From IMG/VR virus record IMGVR_UViG_2700989162_000011: DNA of 5,828 bases; one strand, 5' to 3'. The notes under the pieces are model-generated. The model was not told where the DNA came from and did not search any database. It worked only from the letters and a program-made list of their open reading frames with translations. Numbering within the stretch: the first letter of the stretch is position 1; each line of letters begins with the position of its first letter. Of this stretch, positions 1-4,472 are shown one piece after another. The translations under genes were made by a program, and so were the position numbers. The DNA comes from a virus. Lineage: Duplodnaviria; Heunggongvirae; Uroviricota; Caudoviricetes.

Positions 1-16
1 AACTAGTATTAAGACT

Positions 17-34
17 ATCACTTAAATAAGTGAT
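17..34. promoter_or_regulatory. Perfect inverted repeat ATCACTTA-aa-TAAGTGAT, operator-like palindrome about 45 bp upstream of the ORF starting at 78
   Basis: Read directly: 8-bp arms at 17..24 and 27..34 are exact reverse complements with a 2-bp centre. AT-rich with no following T-tract, so more like a protein-binding site than a terminator. Confidence 0.3.
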
Positions 35-77
35 ACTGGTTGTCTGGAGATTCAGGGGGCCAGTCTAGTCAGACCCT

Positions 78-428
78 ATGTTTTGTGTGTATCAAAAGCG
101 CGAAATCGTTGTTGATGCTGATTATGACTATGACCGGATTGTCTGGGTTGATGAAGATGGCAATGAAGCCAATAAACGCCAAAGTCGTCGTCTCGAACTA
201 CTTCACGAAAACTTTCGAGAGCCACCAGAAAAATGGCGGCGCGTTGCTGTGAAAGATATTGATGAATTCGTTACCTGCTGTTTCACCGAACAGGGTTGTA
301 AAGACTACCTGGCAGCCAATGGTCACAATCTTCGCTTGCCATTTATATATGTAAATGGCGGTTTCAGGAACGCTGAATATATCGGCATAAGAAACTGGCT
401 TGCTGGCATTCGCATCAAAGGAGAGTGA
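78..428 (+). CDS. Hypothetical small prophage accessory protein (116 aa), function unknown
   Basis: Open frame with protein-like charged composition, same strand as the downstream ea-like genes. In-frame stop at 66..68, so the start is inside the window. No convincing Shine-Dalgarno before ATG 78 (GGGGG at 55..59 is 18 nt away). Occupies the position lambda ea22 has relative to ea8.5, but is shorter than my recollection of Ea22. Confidence 0.45.
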   Translation: MFCVYQKREIVVDADYDYDRIVWVDEDGNEANKRQSRRLELLHENFREPPEKWRRVAVKDIDEFVTCCFTEQGCKDYLAANGHNLRLPFIYVNGGFRNAEYIGIRNWLAGIRIKGE

Positions 429-630
429 GATGAGCAGGAATACGGGTTTGTAAAAGATAACGCTTGTGAAAATGCTGAATTTCGCGTCGTCTTCACAGCG
501 ATGCCAGAGTCTGTAGTGTCAGATGATGACCGTACTCAAACATCGGGTTGAGTATTATCTTACTGTTTCTTTACATAAACATTGCTGATACCGTTTAGCT
601 GAAACGACATACATTGCAAGGAGTTTATAA

Positions 631-912
631 ATGAGTATCAATGAGTTAGAGTCTGAGCAAAAAGATTGGGCGTTATCAATGTTGTGCAGATCCGGTGTCT
701 TGTCTCCATGCAGACATCACGAAGGTGTTTATGTAGATGAAGGTATAGATATAGAGTCGGCATACAAATATTCCATGAAGGTTTATAAGTCTAATGAAGA
801 CAAATCCCCATTCTGCAATGTGCGAGAAATGACTGATACCGTGCAAAATTATTATCATGAGTACGGTGGAAACGATACTTGCCCTCTCTGTACAAAACAT
901 ATAGATGATTAA
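631..912 (+). CDS. ea8.5: Ea8.5-like small Cys/His-rich (putative zinc-binding) phage protein, 93 aa
   Basis: Strong SD AAGGAG at 618..623, 7 nt before ATG 631. Length, N-terminus MSINELESEQ and Cys/His pattern (SPCRHH ... FC ... CPLC) match my recollection of phage lambda Ea8.5. Followed by an intrinsic terminator. Not verified by search. Confidence 0.72.
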   Translation: MSINELESEQKDWALSMLCRSGVLSPCRHHEGVYVDEGIDIESAYKYSMKVYKSNEDKSPFCNVREMTDTVQNYYHEYGGNDTCPLCTKHIDD

Positions 913-930
913 ACCAAATATTACATAACA

Positions 931-957
931 ATCCTCGCATTCGCGGGGATTTCTTTT
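931..957 (+). terminator. Rho-independent terminator downstream of the Ea8.5-like gene
   Basis: Stem 931..938 (ATCCTCGC) pairs with 943..950 (GCGGGGAT), including one G-U pair; loop ATTC; followed by TTCTTTTAT. Confidence 0.6.
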
Positions 958-1000
958 ATCTGAACTCGCTACGGAGGGTTTTGTTTTATGGAGATGATAA

Positions 1001-1168
1001 ATGCACTTCCGAGTTACAGGTGAATGGAATGGAGAACCATTCAACAGAGTTATCGAAGCCGAGAACATCAGCGACTGCTATGACCACTGGATGCTGTGGG
1101 CGCAGATAGCACATGCAGACGTAACCAATATTCGAATTGAAGAACTGAAAGAACACCAAGCCGCCTGA
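1001..1168 (+). CDS. Small hypothetical phage protein, 55 aa (MHFRVTGEWNGEPFNRVIEAENISDCYDHWMLWAQIAHADVTNIRIEELKEHQAA); not in supplied ORF track
   Basis: Translated by hand. GGAG at 990..993 lies 7 nt before ATG 1001 (GGAGGG also at 973..978). Stop TGA 1166..1168 sits in the loop of a strong intrinsic terminator. Same position relative to ea8.5 as the 55-codon ORF I recall in lambda. Confidence 0.55.
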   Translation: MHFRVTGEWNGEPFNRVIEAENISDCYDHWMLWAQIAHADVTNIRIEELKEHQAA

Positions 1169-1180
1169 TGGCGGTTTTTT
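1158..1180 (+). terminator. Rho-independent terminator overlapping the stop codon of the 55-aa ORF
   Basis: AAGCCGCC (1158..1165), loop TGAT, GGCGGTTT (1170..1177): five G-C pairs plus G-U and A-U pairs, then a run of six T (1175..1180). Confidence 0.7.
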
Positions 1181-1194
1181 ATTGGAGACAAGAA

Positions 1195-1539
1195 ATGTCA
1201 GATTTGGCTATGAAGGTTTTGAAATGGCAATCGACTGGCGATGTCGGCATCAGTAGCGCAACTCTTGCCTCAATCGCATGTGGACTGAAAAAGAATATCT
1301 ATGGTCATCACTTCGGCGCTCCACATGACGCAGCCGATTTCAGACGATGCGTTGCACTTGTTGAGCAGATCCCAGAAATCAGAGATTCATTCGACAAGGT
1401 TGCAAAGCGCGTTCCGGCATTCAAAGGCATCCTCAACGAATGGGATTCCCTCGTTGATCTGTTGAAGTCTGAAATGAAGATACACGGAAACAAAGCACCA
1501 GAGACTTACAGAAGAATTAGCGAGTTACGCAAGGACTAA
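1195..1539 (+). CDS. Hypothetical prophage protein, 114 aa, function unknown
   Basis: ORF track starts at ATG 1168, but that ATG lies inside the terminator loop with no SD. ATG 1195 is in the same frame and preceded by GGAG at 1184..1187 with 7-nt spacing, so it is the more plausible start. Sits between the lambda-like ea genes and the P22-like xis. No family recognised. Confidence 0.6.
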   Translation: MSDLAMKVLKWQSTGDVGISSATLASIACGLKKNIYGHHFGAPHDAADFRRCVALVEQIPEIRDSFDKVAKRVPAFKGILNEWDSLVDLLKSEMKIHGNKAPETYRRISELRKD

Positions 1540-1544
1540 CCACA

Positions 1545-1563
1545 GCCTCATACTCGATGAGGC
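1545..1563 (+). terminator. Hairpin (weak terminator or RNA structure candidate) just after the 114-aa ORF
   Basis: 7-bp stem GCCTCAT (1545..1551) with ATGAGGC (1557..1563), loop ACTCG. Downstream CTGTTCATT is only moderately T-rich. Confidence 0.3.
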
Positions 1564-1629
1564 CTGTTCATTGCTCAATGATATCCAGACCTACCGCAAT
1601 AATACCAATCCAATAAATGGAGATTCCAG

Positions 1630-1977
1630 GTGGAAGAAGAAATCTTCACTCGTGAAGAGGCAGCGTCGTATCTGAAGGTAGACAAAGGCACTATCACGCA
1701 GTGGATACGAAGTGGACGACTTCAGGCCGCAAAGATAAATCCAGATAAACCTAAAAGCCCATATCGCATTTGCAAGTCAGACTGCATTGCGGCGCTTAAG
1801 TCTGTGAGACACAATAGCGCGGTGAATGCGGTTGATGTGCAGGAGGTTAAAGCATGTCAATCAAACTACGCGGTGGCACGTGGCACTGCGATTTCGTCGC
1901 GCCAGATGGATCAAGAGTTAGACGCTCTCTTGAAACATCGGACAAAAGGCAAGCGCAAGAACTTCACGATCGTCTGA
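1630..1977 (+). CDS. xis: Excisionase / recombination directionality factor, P22 Xis-like, 115 aa, GTG start
   Basis: Immediately upstream of and overlapping int, as in lambdoid phages. GGAG at 1619..1622 is 7 nt before GTG 1630. Basic C-terminal tail (KHRTKGKRKNF). Length agrees with my recollection that P22 Xis is about 116 aa. The 3' end overlaps int by 124 nt in another frame. Confidence 0.7.
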   Translation: MEEEIFTREEAASYLKVDKGTITQWIRSGRLQAAKINPDKPKSPYRICKSDCIAALKSVRHNSAVNAVDVQEVKACQSNYAVARGTAISSRQMDQELDALLKHRTKGKRKNFTIV

Positions 1978-3014
1978 AAGCAGAAGCGTGGAGAGTAAAA
2001 AATCTCGGGGAATCACCGAAAAAGCTATTCAAGGAAGCCTGCATACGGTGGCTGCGTGAGAAATCGGATAAGAAGTCCATTGATGATGACAAGAGCATTA
2101 TATCGTTCTGGATGTTGCACTTCAGAGAAGCCATTCTCTCTGACATAACAACAGAAAAAATAATGGAGGCGGTAGACGGGATGGAAAACCGCCGCCATCG
2201 CCTGAACTGGGAGATGAGCCGGGACAGGTGTTTGCGACTTGGCAATCCGGTGCCGGAGTATAAACCAAAGCTTGCAAGCAAAGGAACGAAGACGAGGCAT
2301 CTGGCAATACTTCGCGCCATTCTCAATATGGCTGTTGAATGGGGATGGCTTGACAGGGCACCCAAAATATCAACACCACGCGTTAAGAATGGACGCATCA
2401 GATGGCTTACAGAGGAGGAATCGAAGCGCCTGTTTGCAGAAATTGCTCCTCACTTCTTCCCTGTGGTCATGTTTGCAATCACGACAGGCCTTCGCCGTTC
2501 CAACGTTACAGACCTTGAGTGGTCACAGGTCGATCTGGATAAGAAAATGGCATGGATGCACCCTGATGAAACAAAAGCTGGCAATGCGATCGGAGTTCCT
2601 CTTAACGAAACCGCATGCCAGATATTAAGAAAACAGCAGGGGCTCCATAAGAGATGGGTATTTGTCCACACCAAACCTGCCTACCGAAGCGACGGAACAA
2701 AAACAGCAGCGGTAAGGAAGATGAGAACCGACAGCAACAAGGCATGGAAGGGAGCGTTAAAGCGGGCAGGCATTAGCAACTTCCGCTTCCATGATCTGAG
2801 GCATACCTGGGCAAGCTGGCTGGTTCAGTCCGGTGTCTCTCTTCTTGCACTTAAAGAGATGGGAGGATGGGAAACTCTCGAAATGGTTCAAAGATACGCC
2901 CACCTTTCAGCCGGGCATCTCACCGAGCACGCAAGCAAAATCGATGCGATTATAAGTCGCAATGGCACAAATACGGCACAAGAGGAGAACGTGGTTTACT
3001 TAAATGCGAGGTAA
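1854..3014 (+). CDS. int: Site-specific tyrosine integrase, P22 Int-like, 386 aa
   Basis: Perfect SD AGGAGG at 1841..1846, 7 nt before ATG. Tyrosine recombinase motifs readable in the translation: TGLRRSN (box I Arg), HDLRHTWAS (His-x-x-Arg-His), RYAHL (catalytic Tyr). N-terminus and C-terminal region resemble my recollection of P22 Int; thrW is the known P22 integration target. Confidence 0.95.
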   Translation: MSIKLRGGTWHCDFVAPDGSRVRRSLETSDKRQAQELHDRLKAEAWRVKNLGESPKKLFKEACIRWLREKSDKKSIDDDKSIISFWMLHFREAILSDITTEKIMEAVDGMENRRHRLNWEMSRDRCLRLGNPVPEYKPKLASKGTKTRHLAILRAILNMAVEWGWLDRAPKISTPRVKNGRIRWLTEEESKRLFAEIAPHFFPVVMFAITTGLRRSNVTDLEWSQVDLDKKMAWMHPDETKAGNAIGVPLNETACQILRKQQGLHKRWVFVHTKPAYRSDGTKTAAVRKMRTDSNKAWKGALKRAGISNFRFHDLRHTWASWLVQSGVSLLALKEMGGWETLEMVQRYAHLSAGHLTEHASKIDAIISRNGTNTAQEENVVYLNAR

Positions 3015-3075
3015 CTTATTGATTTAAATGGTGCCGATAATAGGAGTCGAACCTACGACCTTCGCATTACGAATG
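3015..3075. other. Probable attachment-site junction (attL or attR) between int and the 3' portion of thrW
   Basis: Inference from architecture: tRNA-targeting integrases recombine within the 3' part of the tRNA gene and int lies next to the junction. Exact core boundaries cannot be set without the distal repeat, which is not in this window. Confidence 0.35.
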
Positions 3076-3104
3076 CGCTGCTCTACCAACTGAGCTATAT
3101 CGGC
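3029..3104 (-). tRNA. thrW: tRNA-Thr (anticodon CGU), 76 nt with encoded CCA
   Basis: Reverse complement reads GCCGATATAGCTCAGTTGGTAGAGCAGCGCATTCGTAATGCGAAGGTCGTAGGTTCGACTCCTATTATCGGCACCA: canonical D-loop AGCTCAGTTGGTAGAGC, anticodon loop TTCGTAA, T-loop GGTTCGACTCC, 3' CCA. Sits 114 nt downstream of proA as in E. coli K-12. Confidence 0.96.
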
Positions 3105-3156
3105 CCTGAAAGGACATGTTCACGAACGTGAATCACGGTGGACAAGGTTAAAACTA

Positions 3157-3220
3157 ACCGGGCGATGCGTCAATGGCCTTGTGAATCAAATGGCTACTTT
3201 TGCATCACCCGGTTTTATTT
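3157..3220 (-). terminator. Long-range inverted repeat between proA and thrW; candidate proA terminator or insulating structure
   Basis: ACCGGGCGATGC (3157..3168) and GCATCACCCGGT (3202..3213) are reverse complements with one mismatch, separated by 33 nt. Flanked by TTTATTT on the plus strand and TAGTTTT on the minus strand. The loop is atypically large for an intrinsic terminator. Confidence 0.3.
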
Positions 3221-4472
3221 ACGCACGAATGGTGTAATCACCAATGCCGATCCACTTGTAAGTGGTCAGTGCTTCCAGCCCCATTGGGCCACGCGCGTGG
3301 AGTTTTTGTGTGCTTACCGCCACTTCCGCACCCAGACCAAACTGGCCGCCGTCGGTAAAACGCGTAGAGGCGTTAACGTAAACAGCGGACGAATCCACTT
3401 CGTTAACAAAACGCTGGGCGTTGCGCATATCGCGGGTCAGGATCGCATCGGAGTGTTGTGTGCCGTGTTCACGAATATGGGCGATGGCATCGTCAAGATC
3501 GCTGACGATTTTGACGTTCAAATCTAATGACAGAAACTCATCGTCATACTCTTCGGCTTTAACCGCCACCACCTTCGCAGGGCCTGCCTGCAACTGTGTC
3601 AGCGCAGCTGCATCTGCGTGTAATGTCACGCCGCTTTCCGCCATTTGTTTGCTTAATGCGGGCAGGAAGCTATCGGCGATGTTTTTATTCACCAGCAACG
3701 TTTCAACCGTATTACATGTGCTCGGACGCTGAGTTTTCGCGTTGACGATCACTTTTAATGCTTCAGCGATCTCTGCACTTTCATCAACGTAAATATGGCA
3801 TACGCCTATACCACCTGTGATCACCGGGATTGTCGACTGTTCACGGCACAGTTTATGCAAACCAGCGCCACCACGCGGGATCAGCATGTCGATGTATTTA
3901 TCCATACGCAGCATTTCACTGACCAGCGCACGGTCAGGATTATCAATCGCCTGCACGGCACCCGCCGGTAAGCCACAGGATTTCAGGGCGTCCTGAATCA
4001 CCGCCACCGTTGCCGCGTTAGTGCGACAGGTTTCTTTACCACCACGCAGGATCACCGCATTACCGGTTTTCAGGCACAGCGAAGCGACATCAACCGTCAC
4101 GTTCGGGCGCGCTTCATAAATCACGCCAATAACCCCCAGCGGTACGCGACGACGCTCAAGACGCAGGCCGCTGTCCAGTACGCCGCCATCGATTACCTGC
4201 CCCACCGGATCGGCGAGGTTGCACACCTGACGTACATCGTCGGCAATGCCTTTCAGCCGTGCGGGCGTCAGTGCCAGACGGTCAAGCATCGCTTCGCTAA
4301 GGCCATTGGCTCGCGCGTCAGCAACATCCTGGGCGTTAGCGTTGAGGATGATTTCGCTTTGTGCTTCCAGTTCATCGGCGATTTTTTCCAGCACGCGATT
4401 TTTTTCGCGGCTGGAGAGTTGCGCTAATTTATACGAGGCTTGCTTCGCGGCAATGCCCATTTGTTCCAGCAT
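3219..4472 (-). CDS. proA: Gamma-glutamyl phosphate reductase (glutamate-5-semialdehyde dehydrogenase), 417 aa
   Basis: Full-length ORF whose translation ([38 protein letters not shown] ... YTIRA) matches ProA as I recall it. Starts 11 nt after the proB stop, the classic proBA arrangement. Confidence 0.97.

Follow-up and report, generated by a model that had tools for sequence, protein, structure and literature searches.

The 93-codon gene at positions 631–912 of the window (the whole stretch of DNA analysed here, 5,828 nt in length) is, virtually without doubt on sequence grounds, ea8.5 of phage lambda carried by a different lambdoid prophage. We put the probability of this identity taken together with the mechanism proposed below at roughly 85%, a joint figure that mainly reflects the identity; the mechanism as a whole is held far more tentatively. 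Literature and Pfam already cover the gene with its family and fold, down to the hairpin that follows it.

Identification of the gene

The open reading frame (ORF) encodes 93 amino acids (aa), starts with ATG on the plus strand and ends with a stop codon at 910–912. It is preceded by a Shine-Dalgarno sequence AAGGAG at 618–623 with a 7-nt spacer, TTTATAA, before the ATG, and the near-consensus signal described in an earlier note on this DNA is therefore real. The same note had proposed a match to lambda Ea8.5. The match was correct and, if anything, understated: all 93 of 93 residues are identical to lambda Ea8.5 (NP_040611.1, gene lambdap36), and one synonymous change (CAT/CAC) was found in the 282 nt of coding DNA. 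Results of the profile searches showed a match to PF20735 (Lambda_ea8_5) over profile positions 1–90 of 90, with a score of 164.3 bits against a cutoff of 27 (E=1.1e-48), and a match to phrog_6325 (E=8e-54); NCBIfam contained no model matching Ea8.5. On some copies of the protein the RefSeq name reads 'Ea8.5 family phage-derived protein'. The G+C content of the gene (38%) is lower than that of its neighbours (46–49%).

Genomic context of ea8.5

The window contains the integrase end of a lambdoid prophage inserted at thrW, next to host proA and proB. Its features, with coordinates and strand, are as follows.

1–67, minus: end of an IS3-family element, 95.5% identical to the ETEC1703 element end
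78–428, plus: 5′-truncated ead/Ea22-like gene, 116 aa left, 98.6% match to the 3′ part of an HK022 ORF; phrog_3205
430–453, plus: 7-codon mini-ORF MSRNTGL, made by an 11-bp indel (432–442) relative to lambda
437–630, plus: untranslated leader of about 190 nt, which occurs only with lambda-type ea8.5
618–623, plus: Shine-Dalgarno AAGGAG, assigned from sequence, 7 nt before the ATG
631–912, plus: ea8.5 coding sequence (NP_040611, 100%; PF20735; phrog_6325; 2M7A/2M7B), predicted ligands C27, H30, C84 and C87
930–961, plus: terminator-like hairpin with T-tract, equivalent to lambda 't3', start of the conserved right flank
963–987, plus: weaker second hairpin with T-tract, equivalent to lambda 't4'
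1001–1168, plus: orf55 (lambdap35 homologue, 53/55 identical); phrog_676; Shine-Dalgarno GGAG at 990–993
1158–1184, plus: terminator-like hairpin with T-run that overlaps the 3′ end of orf55, equivalent to lambda 't5', and right-hand limit of the lambda-identical segment
1195–1539, plus: hypothetical gene of 114 aa, HK022p30 / mEp213 gp26 type; phrog_1229
1630–1977, plus: excisionase-type HTH gene (PF12728, TIGR01764, phrog_2907)
1854–3014, plus: tyrosine integrase of the thrW-targeting type (mEp213 / HK542 / SfX); PF00589
3029–3104, minus: tRNA-Thr(CGT), thrW; mEp213 homology reaches 3074

The gene adjoins xis and int, in agreement with the earlier placement in a prophage accessory region. 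As determined by blast, homology of the window to lambda is confined to 402–1184 (783 bp, 96.7% identical). This segment contains the last codons of the Ea22-family gene, the 190-nt leader, ea8.5, two hairpins, orf55 and the hairpin after orf55, and it was within this lambda-like segment that ea8.5 was shown to have arrived. At its left end, the last eight codons of the truncated gene (AGIRIKGE, 402–425) are identical to the end of lambda Ea22, and these are the only residues that match lambda Ea22; judged by these alignments, the Ea22 tail is the conserved left junction. The window shares with lambda the Shine-Dalgarno sequence, the leader, the downstream hairpins, the orf55 neighbour and the position of ea8.5 between an Ea22-family gene and xis/int. 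In contrast to lambda, it carries a thrW integrase of the mEp213/HK542/SfX type with its excisionase and an extra 114-aa gene before xis; its Ea22-like gene is of the HK022 type and truncated by the IS, and the leader and ea8.5 differ from those of lambda by the 11-bp indel and the single synonymous change, respectively. The order Ea22-like gene, ea8.5, orf55 and xis/int was found at four integration modules, namely lambda's own, at thrW, beside sbcB and beside torS.

The int/xis module is 97.7% identical to that of phages mEp213 and mEp043, and a thrW-type attachment site is annotated in their records. Since homology to the free phage mEp213 continues to 3074, inside tRNA-Thr(CGT), the 3′ part of thrW would be the att core supplied by the prophage. 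The excisionase-type ORF overlaps the integrase start by 124 nt, and the same overlap is present in the RefSeq annotation of related prophages. An Rfam match to 'Plastid-ycf2' at 3031–3104 on the plus strand was below the gathering score and was discarded as an antisense-tRNA artefact.

On the other side, the ETEC1703 counterpart of 1–67 is an element end beside the start of an IS3-family transposase gene, and the transposase is oriented away from the ea8.5 side. We take this element to be IS2-like from its terminal sequence. Positions 1–700 matched 4620 of 5426 E. coli genomes (at a median of 3 places), with at least 80% of the stretch present in 7 genomes. None of the matches listed for 1–700 extends left of 68, and its multicopy part would be 1–67. 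Homology to HK022 begins at 68, and the Ea22-like ORF of HK022 has 241 aa vs. 116 aa in the window. The ead/Ea22-like gene is thus cut short by the IS element, which also comes between ea8.5 and the remainder of the early-left operon.

Between the Ea22-like gene and ea8.5 lies the leader, which by blastn matched 22 phage records, all at 99% identity or more; 21 of these are among the 22 records matching Ea8.5. Its folding is not unusual (z = 0.11), and a search of Rfam at E up to 1 gave no match in the leader, the tRNA alone being found in the window. In the 200 nt upstream of ea8.5 (429–630) we detected no sigma-70-like site of at least 9/12, the best relaxed matches reaching 8/12. These three results, namely the Rfam search, the fold z of 0.11 and the search for 9/12 promoter sites, gave no sign of a regulatory RNA or promoter in the leader. 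A distant blastn search against phages likewise gave no evidence that the leader is a remnant of a gene found elsewhere, 21/22 records also matching Ea8.5. E. coli 1008S13 and E2348/69 share the 11-bp insertion at the head of the leader (432–442). The ATG and Shine-Dalgarno sequence of the mini-ORF that it creates overlap the stop codon of the Ea22-like gene, and the same ATG starts the next gene in HK022; the mini-ORF is therefore probably a recombination scar.

Fold and predicted metal site of Ea8.5

Only two relatives of Ea8.5 were found in the PDB by sequence, the solved homologues 2M7A (ECO111_1119 of EPEC O111:H-; E=2.5e-18) and 2M7B (PP_3909 of Pseudomonas putida; E=9.5e-4). An AlphaFold2 model of Ea8.5, built on 50 family representatives (pLDDT 87.4), has helices at residues 3–21, 41–54, 64–78 and 85–92 and strands at 24–26 and 34–36, the latter within a β-hairpin spanning 24–36. 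In a Foldseek comparison against the PDB the model matched 2M7A (E=7.8e-5, TM 0.64/0.69) and 2M7B (E=5e-3, TM 0.59–0.69); beyond these two no structure matched with E<2, and no homeodomain or HTH structure was among the matches. The model thus predicts the hybrid three-helix/zinc-knuckle fold seen in 2M7A and 2M7B, and the assignment of the protein to a hybrid homeodomain/zinc-finger family was borne out by both the sequence matches and the model.

Ea8.5 contains five Cys and four His residues, so its earlier description as Cys/His-rich is apt, and the CxxH...CxxC ligands proved to be conserved across the family. Across 50 aligned full-length representatives, C27, C84 and C87 were invariant and H30 was present in 49/50, while the remaining Cys (19, 62) and His (29, 76, 90) were unconserved. 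This pattern of conservation points to a metal site of the form CxxH...CxxC, as expected for the Ea8.5 fold. Among non-ligand residues, A14, A44, Y45, T68 and D69 were conserved in the same alignment. The 2M7A and 2M7B homologues share the fold and the CxxH...CxxC ligands with Ea8.5 of the window, to which the 2M7A type is about 41% identical (40% in the structural alignment) and 2M7B 28% identical. These analyses showed the product to be a 10.7-kDa acidic protein with a three-helix core that is predicted to be clamped by one metal site, one half of which (C27/H30) would be placed on the β-hairpin and the other (C84/C87) on the C-terminal helix.

When 1.84 billion cluster representatives were searched exhaustively with phmmer, only 73 were returned at E≤1e-3, indicating that the Ea8.5 family is small. 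A word-indexed protein search recovered near-identical fragments and variants only, and the wider family required the exhaustive search. Two long proteins (837 aa and 2595 aa) gave 9 and 6 separate short matches to Ea8.5 residues 66–90 and 30–59; they could be repeat proteins, or the matches could have arisen by chance from low complexity.

Downstream hairpins

A hairpin, AATCCTCGCATTCGCGGGGATT, at 930–951 (9 pairs, 5 of them G-C, with a loop of 4) followed by TCTTTTATCT begins 18 nt past the ea8.5 stop codon. Folded as RNA it has a free energy of -13.1 kcal/mol (z = -4.35), and 0/200 shuffles fold as well. The G+C-rich stem at 930–951, 3′ of the stop codon and followed by UUUCUUUUAU, has the structure of an intrinsic terminator. 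Terminator-like sites in 1–3200 were three times commoner than in shuffled sequence (9 vs. 2.7 ± 1.7). The equivalent of hairpin 930–961 in lambda was predicted as terminator 't3' by Erpin and RNAmotif, with 't4' and 't5' predicted next after it (PMC4195576, Table 4). In the second hairpin (963–987) a C-to-A change at 975 breaks a stem pair that is present in lambda, HK022 and mEp213, and this hairpin is accordingly predicted to be weakened.

The first hairpin had been described in the earlier note as the gene's own intrinsic terminator, a claim that we could not sustain. By blast, homology of the window to HK022 covers 68–436 and then starts again from 925 on, and homology to mEp213 runs from 925 on; in both alignments it resumes exactly at the hairpin (ACAATCCTCGCA...). 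The genes that precede this shared hairpin in lambda and the window, in HK022 and in mEp213 are three unrelated ones. Moreover, the same hairpin comes next after the 2M7A-type allele (41% identical) in 49/51 viral contigs, with orf55 following at the same spacing in 44 of them. The conserved orf55-side flank thus opens with this hairpin, which HK022, mEp213 and the 2M7A-type loci all possess, and by this comparison the predicted terminator belongs to that flank and not to ea8.5. The portion specific to ea8.5 would then be roughly 437–924, that is, the leader and the gene.

For the same reason the description of ea8.5 as a self-contained unit of Shine-Dalgarno sequence, gene and terminator stands only in part: the Shine-Dalgarno sequence and the hairpin are real, but no promoter-like site was detected and the hairpin is common to phages with other genes. 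Morons are reportedly promoter-gene-terminator cassettes of lambdoid phages. The locus resembles them in having a single accessory gene with a good Shine-Dalgarno sequence, a terminator-like hairpin, a lower G+C content and presence or absence among relatives. It differs from them in its terminator, which, being part of a flank common to phages that lack the gene, does not move with it. As for a promoter, no site of at least 9/12 was detected upstream, although ea8.5 is cited as translated in uninduced lysogens of lambda (Liu et al. 2013, as cited in PMC4195576). A third type of homologue, 54% identical to Ea8.5, is located in the nin region upstream of ninB (4001–4282 of its locus), behind a gene that is replicative-helicase-like by length and position only. 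This homologue has a different, unrelated terminator-like hairpin at 4287–4304 of its locus, which suggests that a small gene followed by a hairpin is a recurrent arrangement in the family and not one mobile unit.

Distribution of ea8.5 and its slot

At a nucleotide identity of at least 95%, ea8.5 was found in 246 of the 5426 complete E. coli genomes. A search of 50,697 phage records detected it in lambda, laboratory derivatives and a few close relatives only, in agreement with published statements that, of the lambdoid and Stx phages studied, lambda alone has Ea8.5 (PMC8614690; PMC7093339). We also observed 100%-identical copies on low-coverage contigs, several of them of about 48.5 kb, in assemblies of Shewanella, Pseudomonas, Chromatium, Bradyrhizobium, Streptomyces, Bacillus, Helicobacter and others. 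These copies in unrelated assemblies are almost certainly contaminating lambda control or marker DNA, and the protein scan of genome contigs, consisting mostly of such contamination, is uninformative on natural distribution. Lambda sequence was likewise noted in two phage records, 'Campylobacter phage CJLB-4' and 'Xanthomonas phage vB_XooS_NR08'.

The position of ea8.5 is a hot spot for accessory genes. In viral contigs the 2M7A-type allele (41% aa identity) fills the same slot, before the same hairpin and orf55, with a leader that is different and shorter (about 114 nt). In HK022 the slot holds three other small ORFs of 131 aa (no family), 121 aa (DUF551) and 94 aa (no family); they lie at 1333–2367 of the extracted locus and are without annotation in the RefSeq record.

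Proposed role of Ea8.5 and alternative explanations

The exo-xis genes, including ea8.5, are transcribed from pL (PMC7093339). In multicopy, ea8.5 is cited as strongly lowering the activity of CII-dependent paQ and slightly that of pI (Los et al. 2008, as cited in PMC7093339), and a frameshift in plasmid-borne ea8.5 delayed phage development after H2O2 induction (PMC4195576). The gene was non-essential by CRISPRi (PMC10695390). Two-hybrid partners of Ea8.5 include Int, Q, Ren, Ea8.5 itself and host MinE (PMC3224144; PMC8614690), yet the two-hybrid study flags Ea8.5 as promiscuous and hence less reliable (PMC3224144). Liu et al. 2013 (as cited in PMC4195576) reportedly found ea8.5 to be translated in lambda lysogens without induction, and a review refers to older work in which the exo-xis region synchronised the cell cycle (PMC8614690). 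In published work ea8.5 is thus associated with lower CII-dependent transcription and with a bias towards lytic growth.

We propose, tentatively, that Ea8.5 would be an early product of the leftward operon, which passes through the exo-xis region under N-type antitermination, and would act as a zinc-clamped acidic adaptor or inhibitor that binds a protein partner and not DNA. By weakening the CII-dependent lysogenic programme, as the plasmid experiments suggest, it would bias the phage towards lytic growth. The hairpin at 930–961 would halt polymerase that is not antiterminated before orf55, xis and int, while antiterminated polymerase would read through; the hairpins would in this way insulate orf55, xis and int from non-antiterminated transcription. 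In this prophage the IS located 560 bp upstream cuts ea8.5 off from the operon, and its expression may be reduced. Taken as a whole, this combination of an acidic, protein-binding Ea8.5 that weakens the CII-dependent programme with insulating hairpins is possible but falls short of probable. Against it, the promoter effects of ea8.5 come from multicopy plasmids, Ea8.5 is flagged in the two-hybrid study as promiscuous and hence less reliable, and termination at the hairpin is a prediction. In addition, the cited translation in uninduced lysogens would imply an undetected promoter and a role in the lysogen, not in early lytic growth, and counts against the mechanism.

A review takes the fold as a hint of a transcription-factor role for Ea8.5 (PMC8614690), and the fold has also been read as able to contact regulatory proteins (PMC3824215). 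In line with the former, Ea8.5 could be a zinc-finger/homeodomain transcription factor that recognises specific DNA or RNA sequences and exerts a direct effect on phage promoters such as paQ and pI. Such a role would fit the joining of a homeodomain-like three-helix unit to a zinc knuckle in 2M7A and 2M7B, the regulatory or transcription-factor role that papers infer from it, and the altered promoter activity with multicopy ea8.5. We nevertheless regard it as unlikely, because Ea8.5 has a net charge of -8 and a pI of 4.8, and the same holds for the family: among the 50 representatives the median net charge was -8 and the median pI 4.7, with 94% being net negative. With charge as a proxy, the protein lacks the basic DNA-contacting surface expected of homeodomain and HTH proteins, and no basic recognition helix was conserved among the 50 representatives. 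The Foldseek search also speaks against this role, since no homeodomain or HTH structure was among the fold matches and all matches other than the two homologues had E>2. The family-wide acidity is hard to square with homeodomain-like DNA binding and indicates protein binding instead. The suggestion in the earlier note of a putative nucleic-acid-binding protein therefore fared poorly, the charge and pI being the opposite of what is typical for a DNA-binding homeodomain. Nucleic-acid binding by Ea8.5 is doubtful, and its acidity favours the binding of a protein, as in the mechanism proposed above.

If the partner is a protein, it could also belong to the host. Ea8.5 may be a host-directed or counter-defence factor that neutralises a host protein (e.g., MinE or a defence nuclease) and is carried as a cassette that is swapped as hosts differ. 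This would be consistent with two alleles that are only 41% identical occupying exactly the same slot between conserved flanks, with a third type in the nin region and unrelated accessory genes in the slot in HK022 and mEp213, with the acidity of Ea8.5, with the two-hybrid match to MinE together with the reported synchronisation of the cell cycle by exo-xis, and with the expression in lysogens as cited. On the other hand, lambdoid phages often have mosaic slots in which alleles diverge, and such slots alone are no sign of an arms race. The promiscuity flagged for Ea8.5 in the two-hybrid data also counts against this explanation, and the papers found that mention Ea8.5 report no defence-related phenotype and so give no support to the anti-defence factor suggested in the earlier note. 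We consider this explanation improbable. The same low standing is given to a more specific version, in which a fixed 'allele slot' has divergent Ea8.5 versions or unrelated small genes swapped between an invariant Ea22 tail and the hairpin-orf55 flank, and Ea8.5 would be a host-specific protein inhibitor (counter-defence or cell-cycle) expressed even in the lysogen and not a DNA-binding regulator.

Least probable of all, and compatible with the other alternatives, is that ea8.5 here is a silent passenger of a decaying prophage that is no longer expressed: the IS end at 1–67 truncates the upstream gene and no promoter-like site was detected from the IS to ea8.5, but the ORF, the Shine-Dalgarno sequence and the ligands are intact and the same as in lambda, our view covers 5.8 kb of the prophage, and antiterminated transcription, as with N of lambda, is able to cross IS insertions.

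Implications

As an already catalogued accessory gene in an ordinary mosaic prophage, ea8.5 is itself ordinary, and the discovery value of the locus is small. Its useful points are corrective, as the gene can be annotated with certainty as lambda ea8.5 and the terminator is reassigned to the orf55-side flank. The locus provides a clean small example of lambdoid mosaicism, with recombination junctions located exactly at a gene stop codon and at a terminator hairpin. For the family, the acidity of Ea8.5 suggests that the reading 'homeodomain/zinc finger, therefore DNA-binding regulator' should give way to a search for its protein partner.
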